From contig CAYGDG010000004.1 in NCBI GenBank assembly GCA_964348725.1, positions 2,133 to 66,132 of the forward strand: a DNA stretch of 64,000 bases, in the 5' to 3' direction. This document shows, in pieces, positions 699-64,000 of this stretch. The DNA comes from an uncultured Candidatus Saccharibacteria bacterium (GTDB lineage Bacteria > Patescibacteriota > Minisyncoccia > Phycocordibacterales > UBA9973). A program made the position numbers and the translations under genes. How positions within the stretch are numbered: the stretch's first letter is position 1; the number at the start of each line of letters is the position of its first letter. Under the pieces are notes generated by a model, which worked only from the letters and a program-made list of their open reading frames with translations, was not told the origin of the DNA and made no database searches.

Positions 699-1984
699 AA
701 ATAATTTTCATAAAAACTCTGCTCGCTCTCGGCACCGCAGGAACATTTGTTTTCGCTTTCTTCGCATTTGCCGCGCCGCCCGCCTCGCCGTATATGCCGG
801 GCGAAGCGCTTGCTCCCGCCTGCGACCCGGGCACGCCGAACTGCACGGTGGAATCGCCGCTCCTCTCGGGCATCGCGCTCGGCGCGGACGGCAAAGTGCT
901 GAAAATTTCTTCGGGCGCTCCGGGCTGGGCGGATGATGAAGAGGGAACTTTTATTTTCTCCGCCGCAGATTACGAGCTGGATGATTTTGACGGTATCCTT
1001 TCCACGGACAAAGGCGGCACGGGGCTGGCGATTTTCTCCGCCGGTGATATTTTTTATGCGAGCAATAGTACGACCCTGTCGCTTTTGCCTGTCGGCACGA
1101 ACGGGCAGGTGCTGAAGATCTCCTCTGGTATTCCGAGCTGGCAGACGGATCTGACTATTTCCGGCGGCGGAGGCGAAGGGCCTTTTTCCGCCGGCGCGGG
1201 CATAGATGCGGCGAGCTTGTCCTCGGACATCATCGCCGTAGACCAGTCCGCGCTGAACCTGAATAATTTTGCCAATACGCTTTCCATAGCCAAAGGCGGT
1301 ACGGGCGCGGCGACGGCATCGGGCGCGCTGAATGCTTTAGGTATCGGCAATGTGGAAAACATTGCTTTGTCCTCGTGGACGGGAAGCGCGAATATCACCG
1401 CGCTCGGCACGATCGCTTCCGGCTCTGTTCCGTTTTCGCTCGTCTCCGGTACCGTTCCCGTATTACAAGGCGGCACGGGGCAGACGAGCTACACTGACGG
1501 CCAGCTTTTGATAGGAAACAGCACAGGCAATACGCTGACCAAGGCTACGCTCACTGCAGGGACGGGAATTTCCATCACCAATGGCGCGGGGTCTATCACA
1601 GTGGCAAATGCCGCCCCGGCAATCATCGCCGGCACATCCGACAATTCAAATACGGCGAATGGAAAATTTTATGCGCTCTCTGGAGATTCTTCTGGCAATG
1701 GCACGGATGCTTCCGCCGGCACGCGTACTCTCGTGCCGCGCGTGGGCACGATAAAAAATTTATATGTCATTCTTTCCGTCGCTCCCGGCGCGGGCAAGAC
1801 GAATACATATACAATTTACAAAAATGGCGTGGCCACATCGCTTGTCGCTGCCGTGTCAAACTCAGCGACCGCCGGCAATGACACCGCGCACACCGTGTCC
1901 GTGGCGGCGGGGGATGAAGTGTCCATCAATGTCGCCTCGCAGACCAATACCAAGCTCGGCTGGTCGGTGGAATTTACGAACTGA
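695..1984 (+). CDS. secreted repeat-rich surface protein (hypothetical)
   Basis: N-terminal signal/TM segment (LLALGTAGTFVFAFFAFAAP). Repeated KGGTG / ISSG(A/I)P(G/S)W motifs. Gly/Ser/Thr-rich and tail-fibre-like in composition. Start overlaps the previous stop (ATGA). Confidence 0.5.
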   Translation: MKIIFIKTLLALGTAGTFVFAFFAFAAPPASPYMPGEALAPACDPGTPNCTVESPLLSGIALGADGKVLKISSGAPGWADDEEGTFIFSAADYELDDFDGILSTDKGGTGLAIFSAGDIFYASNSTTLSLLPVGTNGQVLKISSGIPSWQTDLTISGGGGEGPFSAGAGIDAASLSSDIIAVDQSALNLNNFANTLSIAKGGTGAATASGALNALGIGNVENIALSSWTGSANITALGTIASGSVPFSLVSGTVPVLQGGTGQTSYTDGQLLIGNSTGNTLTKATLTAGTGISITNGAGSITVANAAPAIIAGTSDNSNTANGKFYALSGDSSGNGTDASAGTRTLVPRVGTIKNLYVILSVAPGAGKTNTYTIYKNGVATSLVAAVSNSATAGNDTAHTVSVAAGDEVSINVASQTNTKLGWSVEFTN

Positions 1985-1985
1985 T

Positions 1986-2723
1986 ATGGCAAGCATAGAC
2001 ACAATGCACGCATACGCCTGGAGCGAAAATGTCGGCTGGATACGCTTTGGCTCGGGCGTGGATGTGAGCGACAGTGCAGTCACTGGCTACGCGTGGATTC
2101 CAGAGCGTGGCTGGCTGCATCTGTCGCCCGCGCATTCGGGCGTGCATAATGACGGCGCGGGAAATCTCTCCGGGCAGGCGTGGGGCGAGCAAGTCGGCTG
2201 GGTGGATTTTGCCGGCGTCACGATAGATGCGGACGGATTCTTCCACGGCTATGCCGAAGGGGACATCACCGGGCAGGTGAATTTCAACTGCGAAAATACG
2301 GCGACTTGCGGCGCGTCGGATTTCAAAGTGCGCACCGAGTGGCGGCAGGCGAGCGCTCCCGTGCCAGTAGTTTCTTCCGGCGGCGGAGGCGTTGCCTCCG
2401 CCGCCGTCCCTACCATTCTGCCTGTGCCGGAAACATCACCAAGTATTCCTGCCGAAGTGCTGATTCTGCCCGTACCTGTAGCCACTCCCGCCCCGGCGGC
2501 AGAAATTCCGACAGCGCCCCGGCAAGTTTCCACCGCTTCCGTACCGATTGCCGTACCCGTGGCGCAGGCGGAAATTCCCTCAGTCATCTTTGACATCAGC
2601 GTCGCGCCCGGCATAGCCAAAGCGGGCAATCCGCTCATCCTTTCCGCCGCCGTATTGCTTGCTCTGTTTTCCGTCTGGCTCATCTTTTATTTTATTAATC
2701 ACAAGCGCGCGCCATATATATGA
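1986..2723 (+). CDS. membrane-anchored surface protein with three AW(S/G)E..GW(I/V).F repeats, a Pro-rich stalk and a C-terminal TM anchor (hypothetical)
   Basis: ATG at 1986, in frame with track ORF 1764..2723. Repeats YAWSENVGWIRF, YAWIPERGWLHL and QAWGEQVGWVDF. Pro/Ala/Val-rich linker. C-terminal hydrophobic helix followed by a basic tail. Confidence 0.5.
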   Translation: MASIDTMHAYAWSENVGWIRFGSGVDVSDSAVTGYAWIPERGWLHLSPAHSGVHNDGAGNLSGQAWGEQVGWVDFAGVTIDADGFFHGYAEGDITGQVNFNCENTATCGASDFKVRTEWRQASAPVPVVSSGGGGVASAAVPTILPVPETSPSIPAEVLILPVPVATPAPAAEIPTAPRQVSTASVPIAVPVAQAEIPSVIFDISVAPGIAKAGNPLILSAAVLLALFSVWLIFYFINHKRAPYI

Positions 2724-3496
2724 AAAATAAATTTATAATCTTACTTCTGCCTCTGCTTCTTTTCTCACTCTTCGCTTTTTCGGCGAATGCAGAGCAGAGC
2801 GGGGAAGTGCGGAGCGAACAGAGCCGCCTGTCCGCCCGCGCCGCGCCGGGAGAAACTTTGCCCTTTGCCGTGAAGCTCCTCAACTTCGGCTTCACCAAGC
2901 GTACTGATGTGCAAATTACCTATCGCATTACAGACAGCGCGGGGAATGAAATATATTCCGAGAGCGAGACGGTGGCGGTGGAAACTACAGCAAGCTTCGT
3001 GAAAGACATTCCCATCCCGCCTGGCACGCCCCCCGGCACATATCTCGCAAGTTCTGACATCACCTATCCCGGCCAGGTAGAGCCCGCGCATTCCGAATTT
3101 TATTTCTCCGTAGAGCCGAAAATCTTCGGCCTGTGGCAGAGGGACTTCTACCTCTACGGCGGCGGCACCATTCTCTTTGCCGTCCTCATCGCCATCCTGG
3201 CTCGCGCATTCATCCGTCACCGGCGCGCCTCCCGCTTTGCCCCGCATGATTACAGGAATGTCCCGTATGCTGAGCGCGTCTTTTACGAACTCATTTCCGA
3301 CACCGTGATGAGTATGCGCCAGCGGGTGGGCGATCAGGCGCTCATCATCGCTTCGCAGATAGACGGCCTAAAAATAGACGAGCAGGGCAAGGTCATACAG
3401 CTCACGGCTAAGCCTTCCAAGGTCATCGCTGACCTCGTGTCCCGCTACGAGAAGCTCGGACAGAAAGTTTCCTTCTCTTTCCGCGGGCGCACATAA
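2720..3496 (+). CDS. secreted, membrane-anchored hypothetical protein
   Basis: Signal peptide MKNKFIILLLPLLLFSLFAFSANA. Single C-proximal TM segment (ILFAVLIAILARAFI). Start overlaps the upstream stop (ATGA). Confidence 0.5.
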   Translation: MKNKFIILLLPLLLFSLFAFSANAEQSGEVRSEQSRLSARAAPGETLPFAVKLLNFGFTKRTDVQITYRITDSAGNEIYSESETVAVETTASFVKDIPIPPGTPPGTYLASSDITYPGQVEPAHSEFYFSVEPKIFGLWQRDFYLYGGGTILFAVLIAILARAFIRHRRASRFAPHDYRNVPYAERVFYELISDTVMSMRQRVGDQALIIASQIDGLKIDEQGKVIQLTAKPSKVIADLVSRYEKLGQKVSFSFRGRT

Positions 3497-3557
3497 AGTG
3501 CAGACGAAATTTATTATCAGTTGCTTTTGCAAATAAAATATAAGCAAAAATAAAAAT

Positions 3558-3935
3558 ATGAAAAAAGAAAAAATTTTAATAATTGAAGACGAAGCCGGCA
3601 TCCGCGAATCATTGCGGGATATTTTGCAGACCGAGGACTACACTGTGCTGGAAGCCAAGAACGGCAAAGAAGGCCTGGCTCTGGCGCTGGACACTCATCC
3701 TGATCTCATTCTCCTTGACCTGATGATGCCGGAGATGGACGGGATGACCACGTTGAAAAATTTGCGCGCCGACCCCTGGGGCGCGGAGGCGCGCGCGATC
3801 ATCCTCACCAATATGTCCGCCACCGATGAAGCGCTGGTGGAGCAGATGGTGGATTACAAGCCGCTCTTTTACCTTATCAAGAGCGACTGGAAGCTGGCCG
3901 ATGTCCTAAAGAAAATAAAAGATGTCTTCAAATAA
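3558..3935 (+). CDS. response-regulator receiver domain protein
   Basis: 125 aa REC domain (KILIIEDE ... LILLDLMMPEMDG ... IILTNMS ... K). Overlaps the downstream histidine kinase by 14 nt, so they form an operon. Confidence 0.75.
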   Translation: MKKEKILIIEDEAGIRESLRDILQTEDYTVLEAKNGKEGLALALDTHPDLILLDLMMPEMDGMTTLKNLRADPWGAEARAIILTNMSATDEALVEQMVDYKPLFYLIKSDWKLADVLKKIKDVFK

Positions 3936-4623
3936 ACAAATTCCCGATTTCACTTCGCTCGTGTCGCACCAGTTGCGCACGCCGTTTGCCACTATAAACT
4001 GGCACGCCGAGATGCTCCTCTCCGGCCGGCTCGGCGCGATGAATCCCAAGCAGGCCAAATACATCCGGGAAATTTACCGCGCCAGCCGCCGGATGCTGGA
4101 TATGGTGAACACTGTCCTTTCCATCTCGCGCATAGAAAAGGGCGTCCCCGCCGGAGAATTCGGGCCGACCGATATTTCCGCGCTGGCCGAGGCCATCTTC
4201 CGCGAGCGGCGTTTTGAAATAAAAGAAAAAAATCTCATCGTCAGGAAGTCTTTTGAAAAAATTCCCAAAATACATGCCGACCCCAATCAGATAAATATGA
4301 TAGTGCAGAACCTTCTTTCAAATGCCATCAAGTACACGCCCGCGGGCGGGCGCATCGCCTTTGCCATCAAGCGCGAAGTACAGCAGGGAGTGGCCGGCGT
4401 CAGCATCAGCATGGCAGATTCCGGCATCGGCATACCAAAGAGCGCTGAGAAAAATATCTTCGGTAAATTTTTCCGCGCCAAGAATGCCCGCGCGCAGGAA
4501 GCCGAAGGCTCAGGCCTCGGCCTCTACATTCTCAAATCGGTCATAGAAGAAATGCACGGCAGGATATGGTTCACTTCAGAAGAAGGAAAGGGTACGACAT
4601 TTTTCGTCTTTCTGCCTACCTGA
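3922..4623 (+). CDS. sensor-less cytoplasmic histidine kinase (HisKA + HATPase_c)
   Basis: H-box SHQLRTPFATI. N-box QNLLSNAIKYT. G1 box DSGIGIP. G2 box GSGLGLYI. No TM segment or sensor domain. Confidence 0.8.
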   Translation: MSSNKQIPDFTSLVSHQLRTPFATINWHAEMLLSGRLGAMNPKQAKYIREIYRASRRMLDMVNTVLSISRIEKGVPAGEFGPTDISALAEAIFRERRFEIKEKNLIVRKSFEKIPKIHADPNQINMIVQNLLSNAIKYTPAGGRIAFAIKREVQQGVAGVSISMADSGIGIPKSAEKNIFGKFFRAKNARAQEAEGSGLGLYILKSVIEEMHGRIWFTSEEGKGTTFFVFLPT

Positions 4624-4630
4624 ACAGTTC

Positions 4631-5140
4631 CTATATCCCAAGCAATTTCAGTACCGGCGCGGCGAGCGGGTCGGCAGATGTGCCGTATACCAATACGCCG
4701 CCGAGGAGGCCGGTAAGCGTGATGGCGAGAAGACCAAGGAAAGCCAAAAGTTTTGACAAGATCTTGTGCGTCAGTATTTTTTCAAAAAAAGATAGAAATT
4801 GCGAAATTTGCACCGAGTTCAACCTTGCCGAAAGTACTGGAATGACAACAGTCAGAATTTCTCCGATAAGCAGAAGTCCGTAGAGCCAGAGGGAAGCCGC
4901 GGCGAAGAACGAATGCATTTCCACTGTCTGCCTGTCCACGCGCACTAATTCCTCCGCTAATTCACCGGTAGTATTTGCCGCAAAAGCGCCGAGCATTCCC
5001 GCGAGGAGCAGCATACGCTCAATGTGTTTCCAGGATACCAGCGGCAGCCATTTTTGCCAAGGCAGGATTTTTACCACTGAATACAAAAATAGAAATGCTA
5101 TCGGAAAGTGCACTAAGATGGGGTGAATATTGTAAGTCAC
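4631..5140 (-). CDS. DUF2231-like polytopic membrane protein
   Basis: N-terminal HPILVHFPIAFL motif typical of DUF2231. Four predicted TM helices. Confidence 0.5.
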   Translation of the reverse strand: MTYNIHPILVHFPIAFLFLYSVVKILPWQKWLPLVSWKHIERMLLLAGMLGAFAANTTGELAEELVRVDRQTVEMHSFFAAASLWLYGLLLIGEILTVVIPVLSARLNSVQISQFLSFFEKILTHKILSKLLAFLGLLAITLTGLLGGVLVYGTSADPLAAPVLKLLGI

Positions 5141-5174
5141 TTTTTTATTATACTATATTTCGTCTTTGGAGTCT

Positions 5175-5768
5175 TCAGATGAGATGTCGCTCTGCCGCCG
5201 CAGGTTTTTCTTTGCAGGTCTTGATGAAGACGACCATGATTGTATTGGTGACAATCATGGATATGGAATGCAGGACGGTGGCGATGTTGTACGCGCCGAG
5301 GGTGGCGAGGATGAGCGAGTGGCGCAGGACATTCGTGCCGAAGAGGAGCGGCGTTTCGCTCTTCGGATGGCAATATGCTTTGCGCAGTGTCGGCACGAAT
5401 GCCACCAGGTCTATGGCGACGACGATGATGACGGACACAGTCGGGTCTTTAGTGATCAGCCAGGGGATGAGTCCAAGCAGAGCGACGGCGAGAAAATATT
5501 TGTCCGATCGCGGAGGATTCTTGAAGCCGTATTTCAGCGAGAAGAAGAAAATGGCGACGGTGAATATTTCGGACACGCCGGTGGCTATAGCCGCGATGCC
5601 CGCGCCCTTCGCTACTTGGCCGAAGAAAATTACACAGGACACGATGCTCCAAATGAACCAGGTATATGGATGCGGTTTCACTTTGCCGCGCACCACATCC
5701 CGTAAGTAGGGAATATTCCCGAGGAGAGCGAGGAGCGATGCGACGATGACCAGGATTATTTTGAACAT
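5175..5768 (-). CDS. hypothetical 6-TM membrane protein (paralog of 11272..11853)
   Basis: Hydrophobic throughout. Shares architecture with 11272..11853 (for example PTLRKAYCHPKSETP versus [16 protein letters not shown]). Confidence 0.45.
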   Translation of the reverse strand: MFKIILVIVASLLALLGNIPYLRDVVRGKVKPHPYTWFIWSIVSCVIFFGQVAKGAGIAAIATGVSEIFTVAIFFFSLKYGFKNPPRSDKYFLAVALLGLIPWLITKDPTVSVIIVVAIDLVAFVPTLRKAYCHPKSETPLLFGTNVLRHSLILATLGAYNIATVLHSISMIVTNTIMVVFIKTCKEKPAAAERHLI

Positions 5769-10827: not shown

Positions 10828-10837
10828 TTTCTGCATT

Positions 10838-10873
10838 CACCCTCTCCTTAATAAGGAGAGGGCAGGGTGAGGT
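10838..10873 (+). repeat. palindromic element copy A (CACCCTCTCCTTAATAAGGAGAGGGCAGGGTGAGGTG), intergenic, 10 nt upstream of the msrB ATG
   Basis: A 10-bp perfect inverted repeat (CCCTCTCCTT / AAGGAGAGGG) with a 3-nt loop, followed by CAGGGTGAGGT. Near-identical to copy B at 61264..61298. Confidence 0.8.
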
Positions 10874-10882
10874 GAATTTCAC

Positions 10883-11275
10883 ATGTCAGAAATAAATAAA
10901 AGCGAAGAAGAATGGAAGCGCGAGCTCTCGCCGGAGGAATATAAAATCCTGCGCGAGAAGGGAACGGAAGCGCCGTTTACCGGGGAATACGATAAATTCT
11001 TTGAGAACGGGATGTATCGCTGTGCCGCCTGCGGCGCGGAGCTCTTTGATTCGTCTCGCAAGTACGATTCCGGCTGCGGCTGGCCCGCCTTTGATGAAGC
11101 CCTGCTCGGTGCCGTAAAATTCACCGAGGACAACACCCTCGGTATGCGCCGCATAGAAGCCACCTGCACAAACTGCGGCGGCCACCTCGGCCATGTATTC
11201 CCGGACGGCCCGAAAAATACCACCGGGCAAAGATTTTGCATAAATTCCCGTTCGCTGAAATTCAAAAATAAATGA
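10883..11275 (+). CDS. msrB: peptide-methionine (R)-S-oxide reductase MsrB
   Basis: [22 protein letters not shown] ... [21 protein letters not shown]: SelR/MsrB catalytic motifs and a zinc CxxC pair. Confidence 0.9.
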
Positions 11276-17133: not shown

Positions 17134-17139
17134 TTATTT

Positions 17140-17171
17140 GTAACATTTTCTGCGATAGCAGAGATTGTTAC
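17140..17171 (+). promoter_or_regulatory. 32-nt palindrome copy 1 (GTAACATTTTCTGCGATAGCAGAGATTGTTAC): putative operator and/or terminator
   Basis: Outer inverted repeat GTAACA/TGTTAC plus inner CTGCGATAGCAG. Identical to copy 2. Followed by a T-run. Confidence 0.5.
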
Positions 17172-17296
17172 ATTTAGATATTTTTTATTACTTTTTTATC
17201 AAATATTTAAGAAGGTTTTTTATAATCCCTTCAAATCAGTTATGAGGTAGCCGAAAATCACAAAAAGAGTAGGCATACAAATTTAATATTTTAGCT

Positions 17297-17980: not shown

Positions 17981-18034
17981 AAATTACTCGCGAGAAAAGC
18001 CATCGGGAACGGTGGCTTTCTTTTTACCAAGAAT

Positions 18035-18066
18035 GTAACATTTTCTGCGATAGCAGAGATTGTTAC
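18035..18066 (+). promoter_or_regulatory. 32-nt palindrome copy 2, immediately upstream of a TATAAT and the PaaX-like gene
   Basis: Identical to copy 1. Followed by ATCTAATCACACCTATAATAATATG, so it overlaps the likely promoter of 18089..18571. Confidence 0.5.
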
Positions 18067-18088
18067 ATCTAATCACACCTATAATAAT

Positions 18089-18571: not shown

Positions 18572-18578
18572 AAAATAA

Positions 18579-18610
18579 GTTACATTTCCTGCTATCGCAG
18601 AGTTTGTAAC
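18579..18610 (+). promoter_or_regulatory. 32-nt palindrome copy 3 (GTTACATTTCCTGCTATCGCAGAGTTTGTAAC), just after the PaaX-like stop codon
   Basis: Same architecture as copies 1 and 2, with the core reverse-complemented. Followed by TTTTAT. Confidence 0.5.
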
Positions 18611-18783
18611 TTTTATAAATATTTCGGCGCGTTGTCCAGCCAGCCCAAAATAAAGCCCAGAGCGAGGAAGATGACAAGCAGAACGGCGAGGATTATGTAG
18701 GTTTTTCGCATATCTTAATTATATAAGATAATAACCAAAATAAAAACAGGAAGCTTGTAATTACAAGCTTCCTGTTCATTTTT

Positions 18784-34116: not shown

Positions 34117-35994
34117 TTATTCCGTTTTTACTTCCTCAAACTTCACTTTCTCCTCCTTTCCCTTGATGACTTTCTCCGGCTGGAAGGCGCGGGAGAGAGG
34201 GACGGTATGCATGGCGGCTGTCATGGAGCCGTCTTTTTTTATTTTTATTTCCAGGAGCGCGCCGCGCATGGTATTTACGGAAAAGTATTGATCAAAGATA
34301 AAATTACCGAGGCTGTATGCGATGTAGCCATTTTTATATATTTCCGTATCCTGCACCACGTGCGGATGCGCGCCGATGACGAGCTTGGCGCCCGCATCTA
34401 CTGCGCGGTGGGCGAGCGTTTCTTGCCGTTCATTGTGTTTCGTCTGATATTCATCGCCGAAGTGAAATGATACGACGAGGTGATCTACTTCCGCGGCGGC
34501 ATTTTTTATTATTTCATCAAAATTCGGATCGCTGGCGAGGAGGAGCCCGGCTTCAGTTTCTGTCGCTTTCATCCAGTCGGGACCCACATCAGAGAAAGCG
34601 ATATAGCCTATCTTGATACCATACTTTTCTATGATTGCCGGCTTTTTCGCTTCTTCGTAATTCATGCCGCCGCCGGCTGTGAGTATTTCATTTTCTTTCA
34701 GGCGAGCGAGGGTATCGGTGAAGGCATTTCTACCCCAGTCGCCGACATGATTATTTGCAAGCGACAGTACGGAAAAGCCCGCGCCTTTGAGAGCGGGAGG
34801 CACGGTAGGGTCCATACGGAAAGAATACAAGTTACGTTTGTCAGCGCCTTGATCCGATGCGGGACCTTCCAGATTCGCAAATGCGATGTCCGCTTTTTGC
34901 AATATCCCCAGATTTTCAAAAAGAGCGGTATAATCACCGCCAAAATTTTTCATGACAGAATTTTTGACACCCCGATCCAGCATGATGTCGCCGCCGAAGA
35001 CGAGCGTGAGGAAGTCCGGATCTTTTATTTCCGGCACGCCTTCTTTTTCTTTCACCCAGGCAGTGTCCGCGTCCGCTTCGCCGCCGTAGTATACATTTTT
35101 TTTCAGATATTTCACGAGGCTCATGACGTCCGCATATCTATCAGGGCTCCGCAGGAGGGCGATGGCGACAGTGCGGTTGCCCGTTTCGGAAAGCGGTAGT
35201 ATAAAGACGGATAGTACGGTTTGACGCGCAGGATCAGTGTAGCCGCTCTTGCCGCCCTGATATCCTTCTTCACGCAGGAATTGATTGTTTGATGACCAGA
35301 TATGGCGGTCGGTCTTATATGTTCGTTTAGAACTTATGGAAAAGAGCTCAGGTTTTTTTGTACTAATGAAACCGGCAAGGCGAAAGAGGTCAAGCGCACT
35401 GCCTTGATTCCCGGCGGAAAGCCCGCTCGGATCGGCAAATGATGCTGACAATGCGAGGCGCTCGGATTCCTGGTTCATTTTTGCGATAAAATTTTCACGT
35501 CCGAAATGTTCGGCAAGTATTTCCGCGGCATCGTTTGATGATTCCAGAAGCAGGGGATACAAGAGGTCGCCAGTCTGTATTTTTTCACCTTTCCGAAAGC
35601 CGCCGTTTTCGCCGTATGTGGCGAGCGCGCGAGGGGATACTATCGCCGTGTCATGTTCGCGCGGTAGCTCCGTAGATACGAGGGCAGTCATGAGCTTGGA
35701 CACGGACGCGAGCGGCATCACTTCTTTTTCATTCTTTTTTAAAATTATTTCTCCGGTATCCAAGTCGCCCACGATGTATGCTTCTGCGGCTACTTTTGGT
35801 TTGGCGCTGCCATCTTTGAGGAAATAAAAGAATTCCGGCTCTTGTGGTACAGGGGTCACGGTGACGGGCGCCGGCTCACCTGTTTTTATTTTCTGATAAT
35901 TCGCACTCGTAATAAAAAAGACGAGCGATACGCCTACACCGATGGAAAAAATGGTCCAGAAAAATGCCTTGATTTTTCCTGTGTGCGTCATCAT
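34117..35994 (-). CDS. fusion protein: N-terminal serine-type D-Ala-D-Ala carboxypeptidase (PBP5/DacA-like) domain plus C-terminal CapA/PgsA-type metallophosphatase domain
   Basis: N-terminal TM segment. SxxK LASVSKLMTALV. SxN SSNDAA. KTG-like KSGYT. The C-terminal half has VFGGDIMLDRGV ... FANLEGP ... LANNHVGDWG ... VVSFHFGDEY ... GAHPHVVQ ... YSLGNFIFDQ (CapA/YwtB-like). Confidence 0.65.
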   Translation of the reverse strand: MMTHTGKIKAFFWTIFSIGVGVSLVFFITSANYQKIKTGEPAPVTVTPVPQEPEFFYFLKDGSAKPKVAAEAYIVGDLDTGEIILKKNEKEVMPLASVSKLMTALVSTELPREHDTAIVSPRALATYGENGGFRKGEKIQTGDLLYPLLLESSNDAAEILAEHFGRENFIAKMNQESERLALSASFADPSGLSAGNQGSALDLFRLAGFISTKKPELFSISSKRTYKTDRHIWSSNNQFLREEGYQGGKSGYTDPARQTVLSVFILPLSETGNRTVAIALLRSPDRYADVMSLVKYLKKNVYYGGEADADTAWVKEKEGVPEIKDPDFLTLVFGGDIMLDRGVKNSVMKNFGGDYTALFENLGILQKADIAFANLEGPASDQGADKRNLYSFRMDPTVPPALKGAGFSVLSLANNHVGDWGRNAFTDTLARLKENEILTAGGGMNYEEAKKPAIIEKYGIKIGYIAFSDVGPDWMKATETEAGLLLASDPNFDEIIKNAAAEVDHLVVSFHFGDEYQTKHNERQETLAHRAVDAGAKLVIGAHPHVVQDTEIYKNGYIAYSLGNFIFDQYFSVNTMRGALLEIKIKKDGSMTAAMHTVPLSRAFQPEKVIKGKEEKVKFEEVKTE

Positions 35995-37952
35995 GCTAGT
36001 TCGTAATCAATTATTTTGCGCTCCAAATCTGCCTTTTTTACTTTTATTTTTACGCTGTCGCCCAGGCGATAGCGCTTTTTCTTTTTCTTGCCGACGAGCT
36101 CCAGTTTTTTCTCGTCAAAGATATAAAAATCGTCCGATATGTCGCGGGCGCGTACCATGCCTTCGCACTTTGTCTCAATTTCTTCCACGTATATGCCCCA
36201 CTCGGTGACGCCGGAGATGATGCCTTTAAATGTCTCCCCAATACGGTGCGACATGTATTCCGTCTGCTTGTATTTGATGGATGCGCGTTCAGCGTCAGAT
36301 GCGCGCTTTTCCTGGTCGGAACTTTTGCGGGACATCATCTCATACTCGCTCAATTTTTCTTTCGGCACTTTCTTGCCGGCAAGGTATTCCATAAGCAGGC
36401 GGTGCACCATCACGTCCGGATAGCGGCGGATAGGGGAAGTAAAGTGCGTGTAGTGCTCAAAAGCGAGGCCGTAGTGCCCGATATTTTTTGTGGAGTATAT
36501 CGCTTTTGCCATAGAGCGGATGACCGCGCGATGCACGGCGTCCTTTTCGGGCTTGCCGGCGAGCGAGGCGAGGAGTTTATTTATTTCAAATGGGGGAATG
36601 ACGCCGTTCAGTAATTTTACTTTGTATCCGAGGCCGTTTAGGAAGAGCGCAAGGTCGTGCATTTTTTCTTTTTCCGGCGCGTCATGAATGCGGTACACGA
36701 AGACGCCTTCGCCTTTCTTCATTCCTTTGCCAATGCGTTCGGCTACTTTACGATTCGCGAGGAGCATGAGCTCTTCTATCAATTTATTTGAATCTCCGCG
36801 CACTTTTTTTATGACTTTGAGCGGCACGCCTTTTTCATCCAGCACGAATTTTACTTCTTCCTGGTCCAAAGACACTGCGCCTTTCCGGAAGCGCTCAGCG
36901 GTGAGCTTTTTGGCGATGCCGTTTATGATGGCGAGTTCCGCGTGTAATTCACCATTCTTATCCGTGATAGATTTCTCCGCGTCTTCATAGCTGAAACGCT
37001 TTGCGGAGTGGATGACGGTGCGGCCGAACCATTCATCCAGTACCTGACCTTCTGTGTTCATGTGGAATACGGCGCTCATGGTCAGGCGGTCCTGGCCGGG
37101 CACGAGGGAGCAGAGATCATTTGAAAGTACTTCGGGGAGCATGGGTATCGTCCTGTCTACCAAATATACAGAAGTCGCCCGCTCGCGCGCTTCCTGATCC
37201 AGCTCGCTGCCGGGACGCACGTAATACGATACGTCTGCGATGTGGATGCCGATTTCGTACACCTCACCCCCTGACCCCCTCTCCTTAGTAAGGAGAGGGG
37301 GAAGAATGCGGAAAGAAATCGCGTCATCAAAATCTTTCGCATCTGCCGGGTCAATAGTGAAGGTGAGTATGTTTCTGAAATCGCGGCGGCCTTCGTAATC
37401 TTTTTCAGAAATGCCGAGCCGGCTGATGGCCTGCGCTTCATCTTCCGTACCTCTTGGCAGATCTGGCGCAAAGCCGCGCTCAATGGCGATGGCATTCATC
37501 TCGGCGGAATTTTCGCCCGGCTTGCCGAGCACGCGCATGACTTTTCCTTCAGGCGCTTTGCGCGCATCTTTCCACGACGCTATCTCTACGTACGCTTTTT
37601 CGCCGGCTTTGGCGCCGCCCAGGTTCGCCGGGGGGATCAAGATGTCCGTATACATCTTTGTATCATCTGGCTTCAAAAAAAACACGCCGTTCTCTTCTTC
37701 AATCACGCCGGAAAAACCACGCTTGGCGCGGGATATGATTTCCACCACTTCGCCCGTCTGCCGCACACCTTTCTTTTGCGGGAATAAGGCCACGAGCACG
37801 GTATCGCCGTGCAGGCCGGTGTGCAGATGCAGGGATTCTATTTCCACATCTTCTTCATCTTTCTTTTTTTTCGGTTCCAATGTGCGCAGGTAGCCTACGC
37901 CTTTACCGGAAACAGACAGTATGCCTTCAAGGCGGTTAGATTGTGTATCCAT
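35991..37952 (-). CDS. rnr: ribonuclease R (RNB-family 3'-5' exoribonuclease) carrying an in-frame palindromic-element insertion
   Basis: Cold-shock-like N-terminal domains. RNB motifs FTIDPADAKDFDDAISF and HFTSPIRRYPDVMVHRLL. C-terminal S1 domain and a K-rich tail. Confidence 0.85.
   Translation of the reverse strand: MDTQSNRLEGILSVSGKGVGYLRTLEPKKKKDEEDVEIESLHLHTGLHGDTVLVALFPQKKGVRQTGEVVEIISRAKRGFSGVIEEENGVFFLKPDDTKMYTDILIPPANLGGAKAGEKAYVEIASWKDARKAPEGKVMRVLGKPGENSAEMNAIAIERGFAPDLPRGTEDEAQAISRLGISEKDYEGRRDFRNILTFTIDPADAKDFDDAISFRILPPLLTKERGSGGEVYEIGIHIADVSYYVRPGSELDQEARERATSVYLVDRTIPMLPEVLSNDLCSLVPGQDRLTMSAVFHMNTEGQVLDEWFGRTVIHSAKRFSYEDAEKSITDKNGELHAELAIINGIAKKLTAERFRKGAVSLDQEEVKFVLDEKGVPLKVIKKVRGDSNKLIEELMLLANRKVAERIGKGMKKGEGVFVYRIHDAPEKEKMHDLALFLNGLGYKVKLLNGVIPPFEINKLLASLAGKPEKDAVHRAVIRSMAKAIYSTKNIGHYGLAFEHYTHFTSPIRRYPDVMVHRLLMEYLAGKKVPKEKLSEYEMMSRKSSDQEKRASDAERASIKYKQTEYMSHRIGETFKGIISGVTEWGIYVEEIETKCEGMVRARDISDDFYIFDEKKLELVGKKKKKRYRLGDSVKIKVKKADLERKIIDYELA
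37261..37300 (-). repeat. palindromic element copy C, in-frame inside rnr (encodes PPLLTKERGSGGEV)
   Basis: The sense strand reads CCCCCTCTCCTTACTAAGGAGAGGGGGTCAGGGGGTGAGG. Same family as copies A and B, with substitutions that remove in-frame stop codons. Confidence 0.7.
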
Positions 37953-50227: not shown

Positions 50228-51487
50228 ATGGCTACAAAAAACAAAAAAATAAATAAGCCGAAAGCAAAAGCAAAACCTGCTAAGGCAAAGCCAAAGGCAG
50301 TAAAGAAAGTAAAGCAGGTCAAAAAAATCATCAAAAAACCAGCGCCAAAAAAAGCAGTCAAAAAAGAAAAGAAAGTCGTCGTAAAGAAAGAACCGGTCAA
50401 GAAAATGACCGCTGCTGAAAAGAAAGCAGATGACTTGCTAAAAACCTCAAATAGTCTCGTCGAAAAGGGCAAGAAGCGCGGCTTCATCACGTATGATGAG
50501 ATATTGAAGACATTCCCCGACATCGAGAACAACATCATATTCCTTGATGAACTCTACGAAAAATTCTCCGTCGCCGGCATTGATGTGCTCGAAGGCGGCA
50601 ATCTCTTGAACCTCGATGCTGAATTGACGGACAAGGACTTGAATAAGTCCACGATGCACGACTCCATCCAGATGTACTTGAAAGAAATCGGGCAGTACCC
50701 GCTCATCTATGCATCTGAAGAAAAGGAACTTGCAAAGCGTATCCAGAAAGGAGATTTGGAAGCCAAGAACCTCCTTGCCCGTGCGAACCTGCGCCTCGTG
50801 GTGTCCATCGCGAAGAAATACGTCGGCCGCTCGGCTGATTTAACTTTACTTGATTTGATTCAGGAGGGGAATTTGGGTCTTTTCAAAGCAGTGGAAAAAT
50901 TTGACTGGACGAAAGGCTACAAATTCTCCACGTATGCTACGTGGTGGATACGCCAGAGCATCACCCGTGCCTTGGCCGACCAGAGCCGCACCATCCGCAT
51001 CCCGGTGCACATGGTGGAAACCATTTCAAAATACAAGCAGGTGCATCGCCGCCTGTCCCAAGACCTCGGCCGCGAACCATTGGCGGAAGAAATTGCTACC
51101 GAGATGGGCATAGAAGTGGAAAAAGTACATACCATAGAAAATATTTCGCAGGAAACTATCTCCCTGGAACAGCCAGTGGGGGATGATGATGACAAGTCCA
51201 CGCTGGAAAACTTTATCCCCGATGATAAGATTCTCCGCCCTGACCAAGAATCTTCCCGCCGCATCCTTTCAGACCAGATTCGCGCAGTATTGGATGAGCT
51301 GAATCCGAAAGAAAGAAAAATATTAGAAATGCGCTACGGCTTGCTTGACGGCATCCAGCACACCCTGGAACGCGTGGGCGAAGAATTCGGCGTCACCCGC
51401 GAGCGCATCCGCCAGATAGAAGCGAAGGTGCACGACAAGCTCCGCGGACATGATAAGATTTCAAGGTTGAAGAACTACTTTGATTAG
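50228..51487 (+). CDS. rpoD: RNA polymerase sigma-70 factor RpoD with Lys/Ala/Pro-rich N-terminal extension
   Basis: Regions 1.2 to 4.2 are present. Region 2.4 [50 protein letters not shown]. Region 4.2 [26 protein letters not shown]. The gene lies directly downstream of dnaG. Confidence 0.9.
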
Positions 51488-51494
51488 CAGGCTT

Positions 51495-51590
51495 CCCCTC
51501 CTTGATTAAGGAGGGGATTGAGGGGTGGTAATTCAAAAAATCACCACCTCGGCCTTCGGCCACTCCTCCTCAATAAGGAGGAGAAATATG
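51495..51590 (+). repeat. cluster of three GC-rich hairpins after rpoD, two of them SD/anti-SD-like palindromes related to the repeat family
   Basis: CCCCTCCTTgatTAAGGAGGGG followed by ATTGAGGGGTGG. GGCCttcgGCC. CTCCTCCTcaatAAGGAGGAG followed 7 nt later by an ATG that opens a 13-codon ORF. Confidence 0.6.
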
Positions 51591-60498: not shown

Positions 60499-61276
60499 AA
60501 AGAATCGGCAGAAAAAATATCGCACCATTGCGATAGGCGTTTTCATTTTGCTCGTCGCCATATATTTCCGTGCGGAAATTTACAATGGCTTTTCGCGTGT
60601 TCTCGGCGCGGTGGCAAAACCATTTCTCTCGTTCGGCCGAAATGTGGGCGGCGGCATTTCCGGCACTGGCGCGGCTTTTGCTTCCAAAAAATCTTTGCGT
60701 GCGGAAAATGAAAATCTAGAGGCACAGCTCGCCGAAATGCAGGGCAGGATGGGGAACTATGATATTCTGGCCGCCGAAAATGAAAACTTGAAAGAAATAT
60801 TGGCGAGAAAAAAAACTCCCGGCACATTGCTCCTCGCCGCCATCCTCGCACATCCGAACCGCTCTTTATACGATACTGTACTTATAGACGCGGGCGAAGC
60901 TGAAGGGGTGAAAGCAGGCGACAGGGTATTCGCGGAAGGCGATATACCGCTCGGCACAGTGGCGGAAGTCATGCCGCACTCGGCAAAAGTGCTCTTGTAT
61001 TCAAATCCCGGCGAGAAGACCGAAGCCATCCTCGGCGAAGGGCATGTCACCCTCACCGGCCGCGGCAGGGGAAATTTTGAGATGATTCTGCCGCGTGATT
61101 ATGTATTGGAGCCAGGCACTGCCGCGCATCTGCCCGGTATATATCCGTATGTCATTGCCCGCACGGCCACGGTCATTTCCGACCCGCGGGATTCGTTTCA
61201 GAAAGCGTTACTGATCAGCCCGGTGAATATTAATCACCTCAAATTTGTGGAGGTGGAGGTTTCACCCTCTCCTTAA
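60479..61276 (+). CDS. mreC: rod shape-determining protein MreC
   Basis: N-terminal TM segment. Coiled coil ENENLEAQLAEMQ ... ENENLKEIL. Beta-rich C-terminal domain. The last 6 codons and the TAA stop lie inside palindromic element copy B. Overlaps mreB. Confidence 0.8.
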   Translation: MSYLLDKKNRQKKYRTIAIGVFILLVAIYFRAEIYNGFSRVLGAVAKPFLSFGRNVGGGISGTGAAFASKKSLRAENENLEAQLAEMQGRMGNYDILAAENENLKEILARKKTPGTLLLAAILAHPNRSLYDTVLIDAGEAEGVKAGDRVFAEGDIPLGTVAEVMPHSAKVLLYSNPGEKTEAILGEGHVTLTGRGRGNFEMILPRDYVLEPGTAAHLPGIYPYVIARTATVISDPRDSFQKALLISPVNINHLKFVEVEVSPSP

Positions 61277-61298
61277 TAAGGAGAGGGCAGGGTGAGGT
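61264..61298 (+). repeat. palindromic element copy B (CACCCTCTCCTTAATAAGGAGAGGGCAGGGTGAGGT), between mreC and tgt
   Basis: Identical over about 35 nt to copy A. It supplies the mreC stop codon and a GGTGAGGT motif 5 nt upstream of the tgt ATG. Confidence 0.8.
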
Positions 61299-61302
61299 TC
61301 TT

Positions 61303-62568
61303 ATGAAATTTGAAATTATAAAAAAACTAAATAATTTGCTCGGTCGCGCGGGAATTTTAGAAACTCCGCACGGGGTTATCCGCACGCCGGCATTCGTGGC
61401 CGTCGGTACGAAAGCGACGGTGAAATCCCTCACGCCCGAGCACGTCAAAAGCGCCGGCTGCCAAGTGGTGCTCGGCAATACCTATCATTTATATTTACAG
61501 CCCGGCGATGAGATAGTGCGCAAAGCCGGCGGCATCGGGAAATTTATGAATTGGCAAGGACCGACGATGACGGATTCCGGCGGCTTCCAGGTATTTTCGC
61601 TGGGCGCGGCATACGGCAAAGATATTTCTAAAGTAATAAAAATCACCGACCCGTCGCTCCTAATACCAGAGCGTTTTGATGACAGCGATGCTCCGCGCCT
61701 CGCGAAGATCGGCGCAGACGGCGTGTCCTTCAAATCGCACTTGGACGGAAGCATTCACTACATCACGCCGGAAAAATCCATCCAGATCCAGCACAATCTC
61801 GGCGCGGATATTATTTTCGCTTTTGACGAATGCACTTCGCCGGCGGAAGATGTGCGCTATCAGGAAGAAGCATTGGAACGCACGCACCGCTGGGCGGAGC
61901 GATGTTTACGGGAGCACATCAAACTTAATACCACCCCCTTACCCCCTCCTAATTTAGGAGGGGGAAGCTCCGACCTAGGTCGGAGCGGGGGAGGTATCGC
62001 ATTGTTTGGAATTGTGCAAGGCGGCAGGGAAGAAAATTTACGCAAAAAATCCGCCAAGATAATTTCGGAGATGCAAGTGGATGGAAAAGGATTTGATGGC
62101 TTCGGCATCGGCGGCTCTTTCGCGAAGGAAGATATGAGTACTGCCGTAAAATGGGTGAATGAAATTTTGCCGGAAGAAAAGCCGCGGCACTTGCTCGGCA
62201 TCGGCGAGCCGGAAGATTTTTTTATGGGCATAGAAAACGGCGTGGATCTTTTTGACTGCGTCATCCCGACGCGCCTCGGCCGAAACGGCACGATATATAC
62301 GAAAAGAGGGAAGATAGTGATCACGAATGCGCAGTACAGAGAAGATTTTACGCCGATAGAGGATGACTGCCCGTGCACGACCTGCCAAGGCTACACCAAA
62401 GCCTACATCGCGCACCTTTTCCGCGGCAAAGAAATGCTCGCCGGCACGCTCGCCTCCACGCATAATATGTATTTCATCGTCTCCCTCGTAGACAAAATCC
62501 GGCAATCTATTTTGGATGGAAATTTTTATGAATTTAAGGAAAGCTTTATGAGGGAATATATAAAATAA
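61303..62568 (+). CDS. tgt: queuine tRNA-ribosyltransferase carrying an in-frame palindromic insertion
   Basis: TPAFVAVGTKA, QGPTMTDSGGFQVFSLG, LGIGEPED ... DLFDCVIPTR, and the zinc site CPCTTCQGYTKAYIAHL. Confidence 0.9.
   Translation: MKFEIIKKLNNLLGRAGILETPHGVIRTPAFVAVGTKATVKSLTPEHVKSAGCQVVLGNTYHLYLQPGDEIVRKAGGIGKFMNWQGPTMTDSGGFQVFSLGAAYGKDISKVIKITDPSLLIPERFDDSDAPRLAKIGADGVSFKSHLDGSIHYITPEKSIQIQHNLGADIIFAFDECTSPAEDVRYQEEALERTHRWAERCLREHIKLNTTPLPPPNLGGGSSDLGRSGGGIALFGIVQGGREENLRKKSAKIISEMQVDGKGFDGFGIGGSFAKEDMSTAVKWVNEILPEEKPRHLLGIGEPEDFFMGIENGVDLFDCVIPTRLGRNGTIYTKRGKIVITNAQYREDFTPIEDDCPCTTCQGYTKAYIAHLFRGKEMLAGTLASTHNMYFIVSLVDKIRQSILDGNFYEFKESFMREYIK
61931..61993 (+). repeat. composite palindromic element inserted in-frame in tgt (encodes TTPLPPPNLGGGSSDLGRSGGGI)
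   Basis: CCCCCTCCTaatttAGGAGGGGG followed by CTCCGACCTAGGTCGGAG. About 20 extra residues relative to the canonical Tgt loop between RWA..R and ALFGI(I/V)QGG. Confidence 0.65.
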
Positions 62569-63081: not shown

Positions 63082-64000
63082 ATGGGGTTTAAACTCAAAA
63101 CTGAATTTCAGCCTGCGGGCGACCAGCCGAAGGCTATAGAGGGGCTGGTGAGCGGGCTCAAAAAGGGTATGCGGAAGCAGACATTGCTGGGTGTGACGGG
63201 TTCGGGCAAGACTTTTACGATGGCGAATGTCATACAGCAGATGCAAAAGCCGACGCTGGTGATAGCGCATAACAAGACCCTGGCCGCCCAGCTGGCGCAG
63301 GAGTTCAAGGAATTTTTTCCGGAAAATGCCGTGCATTATTTTGTTTCTTATTACGATTATTACCAGCCGGAAGCGTACTTGCCGACGACGGACACATACA
63401 TAGAAAAAGACGCGCAAATAAATAAAGAGATTGATCGGCTTCGTCATGCGAGTACGCAGGCACTTTTGTCCAGAAAAGATGTGATAATAGTTGCCTCAGT
63501 GTCCTGCATTTACGGCTTGGGAAGTCCGGAAGAATATAAGGAAGAAAATATGTCCCTCGCCGTGGGCGATGCCGCCGGGCGCTCGGAGATAATGAAGCGC
63601 CTTATCGGTATGCATTTCTCGCGCACGAATGCGGACCTGACGCCGGGAACTTTCCGCGCGATGGGGCAAAAGGTAGAACTGATGCCGATTTCGGAGACTT
63701 TTACATATAGTATTGAATTTTCCCCCTCTCCTTTACAAGGAGAGGGCGGGGGTGAGGTTCTTCGCATTTTAAAAATAGACGCCGTGTCATCCAAAGTCCT
63801 CGGTGAAGAGCAGAATATTTTTATTTTTCCGGCGAAGCACTTCATCACGAACAAAGCGAAGCTTCAGCAGGCGATAAAAAATATCAAAGAAGAACTGAAA
63901 GCCCAGCTGAAGAAATTTGATAAGGAAGGAAAAATTTTGGAAGCCGAGCGGCTGAAGCGCCGCACGAATTATGATCTGGCGATGCTGCGCGAAGTGGGCT
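63082..64000 (+). CDS. uvrB: excinuclease ABC subunit B (5' part; continues beyond window)
   Basis: MGFKLKTEFQPAGDQPKAIEGLVSGL ... QTLLGVTGSGKTFTMANVI ... YFVSYYDYYQPEAY ... ASVSCIYGLGSPEEY. Confidence 0.9.
   Translation, partial: MGFKLKTEFQPAGDQPKAIEGLVSGLKKGMRKQTLLGVTGSGKTFTMANVIQQMQKPTLVIAHNKTLAAQLAQEFKEFFPENAVHYFVSYYDYYQPEAYLPTTDTYIEKDAQINKEIDRLRHASTQALLSRKDVIIVASVSCIYGLGSPEEYKEENMSLAVGDAAGRSEIMKRLIGMHFSRTNADLTPGTFRAMGQKVELMPISETFTYSIEFSPSPLQGEGGGEVLRILKIDAVSSKVLGEEQNIFIFPAKHFITNKAKLQQAIKNIKEELKAQLKKFDKEGKILEAERLKRRTNYDLAMLREVG
63722..63758 (+). repeat. palindromic element copy D in-frame inside uvrB (encodes SPSPLQGEGGGEV)
   Basis: CCCCCTCTCCTTTACAAGGAGAGGGCGGGGGTGAGGT. Same family. 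The stop-creating positions are altered (TTTACAA loop, GGCGGGGG). Confidence 0.7.

Follow-up and report, generated by a model that had tools for sequence, protein, structure and literature searches.

In the present study, we analyzed a 64,000-nt stretch of DNA (hereafter, the window) from an uncultured Candidatus Saccharibacteria bacterium (contig CAYGDG010000004.1) and found that its uvrB gene carries, in frame within the coding sequence, a copy of the palindromic repeat family known from Escherichia coli as BoxC, PIT (potential intrastrand triplex), TM_ECO or HPGQ. The gene starts with the ATG at 63082 on the plus strand; its first 306 codons (63082..64000), with conserved helicase motifs, lie in the window, and the open reading frame (ORF) continues past the window end. 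The copy, at 63720..63762 on the same strand, is best explained as a solo element tolerated in frame, selfish or neutral like the Rickettsia palindromic elements (RPEs), and we estimate the probability of this explanation at about 0.8. Most likely, the copy has no function of its own at this site.

The plus strand of 63720-63762 reads TT-CCCCCTCTCCTT-TAC-AAGGAGAGGG-C-GGGGGTGAGG-TTCTT, and is composed of a hairpin with a 5' arm (CCCTCTCCTT, 63724-63733), a loop (TAC, 63734-63736) and a 3' arm (AAGGAGAGGG, 63737-63746), followed by a single C (63747) and a mirror G-block (GGGGGTGAGG, 63748-63757). A profile (nhmmer) made from 121 unrelated metagenomic copies of the motif matches this site with E=5e-9. 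As RNA, the copy is predicted by Watson-Crick folding of its 51-nt neighbourhood to form a 10-bp stem with a 3-nt loop (-23.1 kcal/mol). The copy encodes S214-G224, SPSPLQGEGGG, followed by E225-V226, and the frame around it is ...TFTYSIEF-SPSPLQGEGGG-EVLRILKIDAV... The original prediction, made from the sequence of the window, had placed a repeat in frame inside uvrB and expected UvrB to be longer here than its orthologues. Both proposals were borne out: the sequence at 63722-63757 is as it was described, the frame is open to the window end, and in alignments with solved UvrB structures (E=6e-108) the window protein has a clean surplus of eight residues over the Bacillus and Geobacillus proteins. 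Furthermore, 118 of the 120 best database homologues have IEF-xGG-KI at the site and lack the insert. In an AlphaFold model of the window UvrB (65 homologues, mean pLDDT 77), residues 214-224 form a loop (local pLDDT ~80-85) joining the strands 207-213 and 225-233, and residues 146-255 match the 'UvrB interaction domain' of 3fpn_B, namely domain 2, the UvrA-binding domain. In the model, the insert thus caps a beta-hairpin of domain 2. Relative to the orthologues, the copy is an insertion into this turn; we infer that it is translated as a Pro/Ser/Gly-rich surface loop, and that the loop is neutral; the copy would survive because the net gain is only 24 nt, no stop codon lies in frame, and the product is such a loop.

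Chance or convergent resemblance, or an assembly artefact, would mean that no element was inserted at all. Part of the tail (GGx GGT GAG GTT) could indeed be ancestral uvrB codons. However, a match to the 36-mer was found in 0 of 100 shuffles, and this result, together with the profile match, the preserved reading frame and the clean gap of eight residues in the orthologues, effectively refutes this explanation.

The original prediction also held that the element is modified at stop-prone positions. This is correct for the loop of the uvrB copy, since TTTACAA avoids the TAA TAA that the consensus loop TTAATAA reads in the frame of uvrB, mreC and tgt, and that ends MreC in the window. However, the extra G in the tail of the uvrB copy restores the reading frame and removes no stop codon. 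Nor does stop avoidance apply in the rnr frame, in which the unmodified loop reads no stop; a relative's uvrA bears TTAATAA unaltered in an rnr-type frame, as APLLNKERGGGEV. The stop-free loop of uvrB is a survivorship pattern rather than a demonstration of editing after insertion, and may reflect either later mutation of the copy or the persistence of stop-free variants alone.

The element was not recognised in the original prediction, although its family has been described since the 1990s. BoxC of E. coli was later re-described as the PIT element and as TM_ECO (Bergler 1992; Bachellier 1990s; Hoyne/Maher 2000; Holder et al., NAR 2015, PMC4666352). Judged by its blocks, the window element is this known BoxC / PIT / TM_ECO / HPGQ motif in a relaxed low-GC variant. 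Both have, in nearly the same sequence, a C-rich block followed by its G-rich complement and by a mirror G-rich block, which in the window are arranged as CCCTCTCC(C) - loop - (G)GGAGAGGG - short loop - GGGTGAGG(G). Reversed, GGGTGAGG gives GGAGTGGG, with seven identities and one T opposite A, and this T/A exception to the mirror is at the same place as in E. coli TM_ECO, GGGAGAGGG-TTA-GGGTGAGGG. Both are dispersed and multicopy, vary strongly in copy number between genomes, and have no known function. However, the window copies do not fit the strict published pattern, CCCTCNCCC-N3-6-GGGNGAGGG-N3-GGGNGAGGG (PMC4666352): the blocks are 8 nt instead of 9, with T, A, T in place of C, G, G at the ninth position, and the stem is lengthened by TT/AA pairs to leave a 3-nt loop. 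Loop 1 of the window copies is 7 nt, or 3 nt counting the TT/AA pairs, and loop 2 is 1-3 nt. By our reading, an alternative pairing of the C arm with the tail would contain a T:T mismatch.

The two also differ in host and in location. The strict-pattern census of Holder et al. (PMC4666352) covered Proteobacteria only, with 3610 copies in 262 genomes, of which E. coli K-12 MG1655 has 23 (~5 per Mb) and one Enterobacter genome the maximum, 143; the present host is low-GC and Patescibacteria-like, and the density in the window is much higher. Holder et al. described the E. coli motif as 'always located intergenically', and Kaplan et al. (NAR 2016, PMC5100583), who described the same E. coli sequences as a G-quadruplex-hairpin-duplex switch, found 'none within' ORFs. 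In contrast, the copies in uvrB, rnr and tgt of the window are internal to ORFs that Pfam or PDB matches support on either side of the copy. What is new here is the low-GC variant with 8-nt blocks, its presence in Patescibacteria and its position inside genes; the family itself is known.

We scanned species-representative genomes, viral contigs and metagenomes (AT-extended form) with the pattern CCCTCTCC-N6-8-GGAGAGGG-N1-6-GGGTGAGG. At least 120 loci matched in the species-representative genomes, where we estimate ~0.1-10 to be expected by chance, as did at least 120 viral contigs and at least 120 metagenome loci. According to the record titles, the genome matches come from Proteobacteria, Cyanobacteria, Chloroflexota, Planctomycetota, Acidobacteriota, Verrucomicrobiota, Elusimicrobiota, Nitrospirae, Bacteroidota, Nomurabacteria and others, and GC-rich genomes among them satisfy the strict TM_ECO pattern. 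Since the flanks of the matches are unrelated, the unit is the 33-38-nt motif itself. On this evidence, a family that counts as the classic 'extragenic' repeat of enterobacteria is in fact pan-bacterial. A DNA uptake signal was considered and rejected, since a motif found in many phyla cannot be a species-specific signal. The matches in viral contigs contrast with the account of Holder et al., in which no phage link was found. In one of them (L168, IMGVR_UViG_3300020057_000061, 2570-2860; also in L128 and L190) the motif forms tandem arrays with a 72-nt period. These are not CRISPR arrays, since the 36-nt 'spacers' of L168 are identical and the array is thus a tandem repeat.

Residence inside genes is not restricted to the window. 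Among loci with GC<0.55, to which this statistic was confined because long ORFs are meaningful there, ~20-25% of the copies are found, in one orientation or the other, within ORFs of 150 codons or more and at a depth of no less than 25 codons. The Pfam-confirmed examples are the NAD-dependent DNA ligase (ligA) of a planctomycete, with the in-frame copy PSPPWGEGRGEG, and PriA in the locus L097. By eye, copies were also found in a Dus-like enzyme of a Nomurabacteria genome, a CheA and a UDP-galactopyranose-mutase-like protein. On these sequences, in-frame residence is a general and previously unremarked trait of the family outside E. coli. The motif is tolerated within essential DNA- and RNA-metabolism genes of gene-dense, Patescibacteria-like genomes (uvrB, uvrA, rnr and tgt in the present lineage; ligA and priA elsewhere), and so provides proteins with loops specific to a lineage. 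It can mislead annotation and alignment as well, in that low-complexity inserts of the form PSP..GEG or PLL.KERG can be mistaken for domains or errors.

The window contains several further copies. The core pattern CCCTCTCC-N7-GGAGAGGG with up to three mismatches occurs five times, against 0.09 expected, and the profile gave strong matches (E ~1e-8 to 1e-9) at 10840, 61265 and 63724 on the plus strand and at 37299-37265 on the minus strand, with weak matches to variants at 51495 (plus, E=0.015) and 61964-61932 (antisense, E=7.4). There are thus four canonical copies (intergenic, in rnr, at the mreC stop and tgt start, and in uvrB) and two variants (in tgt and an intergenic composite). The original prediction called the repeat unusually dense, rightly, since six copies in 64 kb correspond to ~94 per Mb. 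It had named the hits in rnr, tgt and the mreC terminus, all of which are real, and the RNB, TGT and MreC assignments are supported by Pfam; to these come two intergenic copies, at 10836-10873 and 51494-51590. An Rfam scan of the window at gathering thresholds gave no match at any of the copies. As ~91% of the window is ORF, the finding of three to four of the six copies in coding sequence represents no enrichment there, only an absence of exclusion.

The canonical copy in rnr (RNase R; 35991-37952, minus strand) lies in frame at 37261..37303, minus strand, in sense to the gene, with a 12-bp stem (-28.1 kcal/mol). It codes for LPPLLTKERGSGGEV within the RNB domain and accounts for 10 residues more than in Bacillus subtilis RNase R. 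The copy TTCACCCTCTCCTTAATAAGGAGAGGGCAGGGTGAGGT at the mreC/tgt junction (61261..61298, plus strand), identified by profile and sequence identity, gives mreC its final four codons (SPSP) and its TAA stop; in a syntenic relative, MreC ends with VEVSI* and lacks SPSP. All 38 of its nucleotides are identical to those of the intergenic copy at 10836..10873 (plus strand), upstream of msrB. The tail of the latter places GAGGTGA 7 nt 5' of the msrB (SelR) ATG at 10883 (10869-10885), and the tail of the junction copy places GAGGT 4 nt 5' of the tgt ATG at 61303 (61294-61305). To judge from this spacing, the repeat tail may have been co-opted as a Shine-Dalgarno-like ribosome-binding site of msrB and tgt.

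The in-frame copy in tgt (61930..61995, minus strand, antisense to the gene; -39.5 kcal/mol) differs from what the original prediction implied, in that it is a CCCCTCC/GGAGGGG variant with the tail on the opposite strand and a second small hairpin nested in it. It consists of the complement of the tail (ACCACCCCC), a hairpin (CCCCCTCC-TAATTTA-GGAGGGGG, 61942-61964), the nested hairpin (GCTCCGACCTAGGTCGGAGC, 61967-61986) and then GGGGGAGGT, and codes for TTPLPPPNLGGGSSDLGRSGGG, with 16 residues more than the TGT of Zymomonas mobilis. The composite variant of ~100 nt (51494..51590, plus strand) is intergenic, follows the ORF 50228-51487 and precedes an ORF of merely 13 codons. It reads CCCCTCCTT-GATT-AAGGAGGGG, GAGGGGTGGT, CACCACCTC, GGCC-TTCG-GCC, CTCCTCCTC-AATAA-GGAGGAG, ATG. 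Extra small hairpins (GCTCCGACCTAGGTCGGAGC; GCCCGAAGGGC) or longer inserts nested between hairpin and tail, or in the loop of the motif, were seen at 61967-61986 of the window as well as in the loci L367 (upstream of 401), L368 and L369.

Several observations weigh against a simple insertion of a neutral element into uvrB. As a correction to the original prediction, the net gain of 24 nt is shorter than the 37-43 nt over which uvrB resembles the repeat. Either the element took the place of ~4 ancestral codons, or uvrB had the GGT GAG GTT tail before the insertion; homologues have xGG-K/E-I/V where this tail sits. An anchored DNA pattern around the uvrB site found no match in the JGI metagenomes, and hence no empty-site allele, an exact look-up of the Tgt protein of the window likewise gave no match, and no target-site duplication was seen when it was looked for at the four canonical copies. 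The gene is seen intact only through codon 306, to the window end. Furthermore, the stems of all three coding copies are perfect over 9-12 bp, whereas UvrB is only 75% identical to that of its nearest relative. Perfect stems in diverged host genes imply either very recent insertion or selection or gene conversion acting on nucleotide structure, and the latter would contradict pure neutrality. The 24-nt gain and the perfect stems together would be explicable by recent insertion, by gene conversion among copies, or by integration beside a tail-like target.

One possible explanation of such stems is that the palindrome is kept in uvrB for a function at the level of nucleic acid, either as an mRNA hairpin with two Shine-Dalgarno-like purine blocks that pauses ribosomes or regulates, or as a DNA hairpin, triplex or G-quadruplex switch. 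The predicted hairpins are stable (-23 kcal/mol in uvrB and -19 to -40 kcal/mol for the other copies), and no coding copy has a mismatch in its stem, even though the host genes have diverged to saturation. The canonical copies of the window are all in sense to the local gene, the tails of both intergenic ones are placed like a Shine-Dalgarno sequence of the next gene, and triplex and G-quadruplex/hairpin structures of the E. coli motif have been published in vitro. However, 118 of the 120 UvrB orthologues lack the element, and in the nearest relative this turn is occupied by a sequence unrelated to it. A rule of sense orientation, suggested by four of four canonical copies, was rejected: it fails in 360 motif-selected loci elsewhere, where copies in coding sequence run antisense no less often than sense, and the variant in tgt, too, is antisense. 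For the E. coli motif, Holder et al. (PMC4666352) found a stable triplex in vitro but detected none in vivo, and cited earlier work in which it had no promoter or terminator activity. As in the HPG1/HPG2 sequences of Kaplan et al., the C-block can sequester two of four G-tracts; however, the tracts of the window copies are shorter, with two to three G only, so that the potential for a G-quadruplex is weak and of two tetrads at best. We therefore regard a nucleic-acid function of the uvrB copy as unlikely, and prefer the tolerated solo copy.

The best match of the window UvrB (P0001, the relative with 75% identity) is encoded on a JGI contig, L366, which has the same gene order as the window: mreC, tgt, a small ORF and uvrB, with uvrA further on. 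At the site where the window has the BoxC-type copy, its uvrB (4180-4250) has an unrelated 49-nt palindrome, GCTTTTTC...GAAAAAGC, which adds 16 residues at the identical hairpin turn. The spacer between mreC and tgt holds a composite of ~100 nt (1745-1852) made of a variant of the motif, two more hairpins, and a Shine-Dalgarno sequence with ATG. This composite, including GGAGGAG, a run of A and the ATG, provides tgt with its Shine-Dalgarno sequence and start codon, and its layout is the same as that of the window composite. A nearly identical ~100 nt occurs again in frame inside tgt of the relative (2489-2593), in the same loop as the insert in the window tgt and in the opposite orientation, and its uvrA holds a canonical copy in frame. 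On comparison of the two contigs, the lineage is saturated with small nesting palindromic elements that struck the same permissive loops repeatedly. As the lineage is so saturated and ~91% coding, many copies would land in permissive protein loops. The uvrB gene of the relative (3534-5737) is called as two ORFs of 403 and 319 aa, and the protein loses register at about residue 385, as would be expected of a frameshift, an error in sequencing or a pseudogene.

Other UvrBs of Patescibacteria (P0051, P0064, P0072, P0081, P0082 and P0117) have different inserts in or around the same loop. Because these proteins and that of the relative bear different inserts, the turn can be regarded as a permissive, repeatedly struck site; across Patescibacteria it would be either an insertion hot spot or simply permissive. 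The same observation could be read as an adaptive change of the protein, in which a longer loop of domain 2 tunes the UvrA-UvrB interaction in this lineage, and the position within the UvrA-interaction domain is compatible with it. However, the inserts of different lineages are unrelated in sequence and length, the peptide in the window protein is of low complexity (Pro/Ser/Gly), and identical DNA is also present outside coding sequence and in genes of unrelated proteins. An adaptive origin is thus quite improbable, more so than a nucleic-acid function, and tolerance of a neutral or selfish copy accounts better for the turn.

The closest analogy to such tolerance is provided by the RPEs (Ogata et al. 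2000), which, as summarized in PMC10969869, are palindromic selfish repeats of ~100-150 bp found in frame in unrelated housekeeping genes of a small, gene-dense genome, in Rickettsia only, and translated into additional stretches of peptide that the protein fold accommodates. In the present lineage, in-frame palindromes likewise occupy surface positions, in uvrB, tgt, rnr and the relative's uvrA. However, compared with the RPEs as described in that summary, the window element is much shorter (~37 nt), pan-bacterial and unrelated in sequence. A miniature inverted-repeat transposable element was considered and rejected, since the four canonical copies have no duplicated flank, the unit (hairpin plus tail) is asymmetric, and no related element with a transposase was observed. 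Very small dispersed repeats (SDRs) of cyanobacteria, the subject of work by Elhai et al. in 2008, are reportedly mobile units of 20-30 nt that nest and sit in genes without breaking the frame. The small hairpins nested in the window tgt and in L367-L369 resemble them in this respect, but the sequence families differ.

How the repeat is dispersed is a separate question, and the best lead is mobilization in trans by a DUF559 endonuclease. In the locus L097, two inverted copies of the motif enclose ~360 nt coding for a DUF559 domain (Pfam E=4e-37), in frame inside PriA; the complete cassette (2407-2840) lies between the 3'-DNA-binding and helicase domains of the PriA ORF (1774-4404). All nine DUF559 matches in the 360 motif-selected loci adjoin hairpins of the motif, eight of them on both sides. 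Conversely, among 120 DUF559 proteins picked by protein profile alone, 44 begin or end in motif-encoded peptides such as PLLIKERGV, LSQRERG, PLPSGEREK or ...PSP, whereas only 2 of 120 UvrB proteins, taken as a control, have such termini. Three further DUF559 genes that lack these peptides all have copies of the motif on both sides: one of Nostoc, one that lies between hsdR and hsdM in Methylomonas, and one of metagenomic origin. The usual layout of the cassette is hairpin-tail, DUF559, tail-hairpin; among the 360 loci, the orientation of the flanking copies is not uniform. The motif-bracketed DUF559 loci are L019 (5594-6026), L097 (2407-2840), L162, L163, L254, L270, L317, L345, L360 and L367-L370. 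Scans of viral contigs with single DUF559 proteins gave 2 and 0 loci. Overall, DUF559 genes are almost invariably bracketed by the motif, and their reading frames frequently extend into it at the 3' end. No DUF559 gene lies within the 64-kb window.

This arrangement recalls the repetitive extragenic palindromic (REP) sequences and REPINs with their REP-associated tyrosine transposases (RAYT), where mobilization is ascribed to a nuclease gene that is present once and has the repeats on its flanks (Bertels and Rainey 2011, PMC3116915). Both repeats are short GC-rich palindromes, often in inverted pairs, and DUF559 genes are flanked in the same way as RAYT genes; it was evidence of this kind that first connected RAYT transposases with REP repeats. 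However, the sequences are different, the BoxC-type element has no GTAG motif, and DUF559 has a PD-(D/E)XK Vsr-like fold rather than that of an IS200-like HUH transposase. Among known structures, the DUF559 profile finds the structural-genomics chain 3hrl and, with a weak score (E=2e-4), the homing endonuclease I-Bth0305I (3r3p). The evidence is purely associative, and suggests a partnership like that of REP and RAYT. Tentatively, and with the odds still against it, the BoxC/PIT/TM motif could be the non-autonomous partner of candidate DUF559 endonucleases (Vsr-like, PD-(D/E)XK, related to I-Bth0305I) in a pan-bacterial system resembling REP/RAYT. Under such a scheme, DUF559 cassettes bracketed by the motif, one of them in frame in priA of L097, would be autonomous units, and solo motifs such as that in uvrB would be their dispersed offspring or footprints, colonizing protein loops. 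A search of the available literature found no paper linking DUF559 with BoxC. Holder et al. (PMC4666352) found no link of the motif to transposons, phages or plasmids, and associated it with local genome instability. The origin and mobilizer of BoxC/PIT/TM have been unexplained for ~30 years, and the flanking of DUF559 genes makes the question directly testable; this association is the part of the present finding worth following.

E. coli K-12 itself offers one such locus. The gene ycjD, annotated as DUF559, has a remnant of the motif that covers its stop codon, and 165 nt downstream there is a complete BoxC (NC_000913, 1351200-1351760; L361, 2203-2761). The ycjD region, next to fabI, is absent from ~2080 of 5426 complete E. 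coli genomes, with the breakpoint ~40 nt from BoxC, which is in line with the published link between the motif and local rearrangement. In the one ycjD-lacking genome that was inspected (APEC E19019; L362, 1760-2120, against L361, 2160-2830), a TetR/RND efflux island is present instead. As this alternative allele is a different gene island and not a clean excision of the cassette, it does not settle the mechanism.

The window also contains a palindromic repeat of 38 nt different from the BoxC-type element, TGTAACATTTTCTGCGATAGCAGAGATTGTTACA, which occurs three times between small genes (17139-17176, 18034-18071 and 18578-18615). These repeats adjoin a match to the Rfam DUF805b RNA at 17241-17275, which, with a tRNA-Thr, was what the Rfam scan detected in the window.

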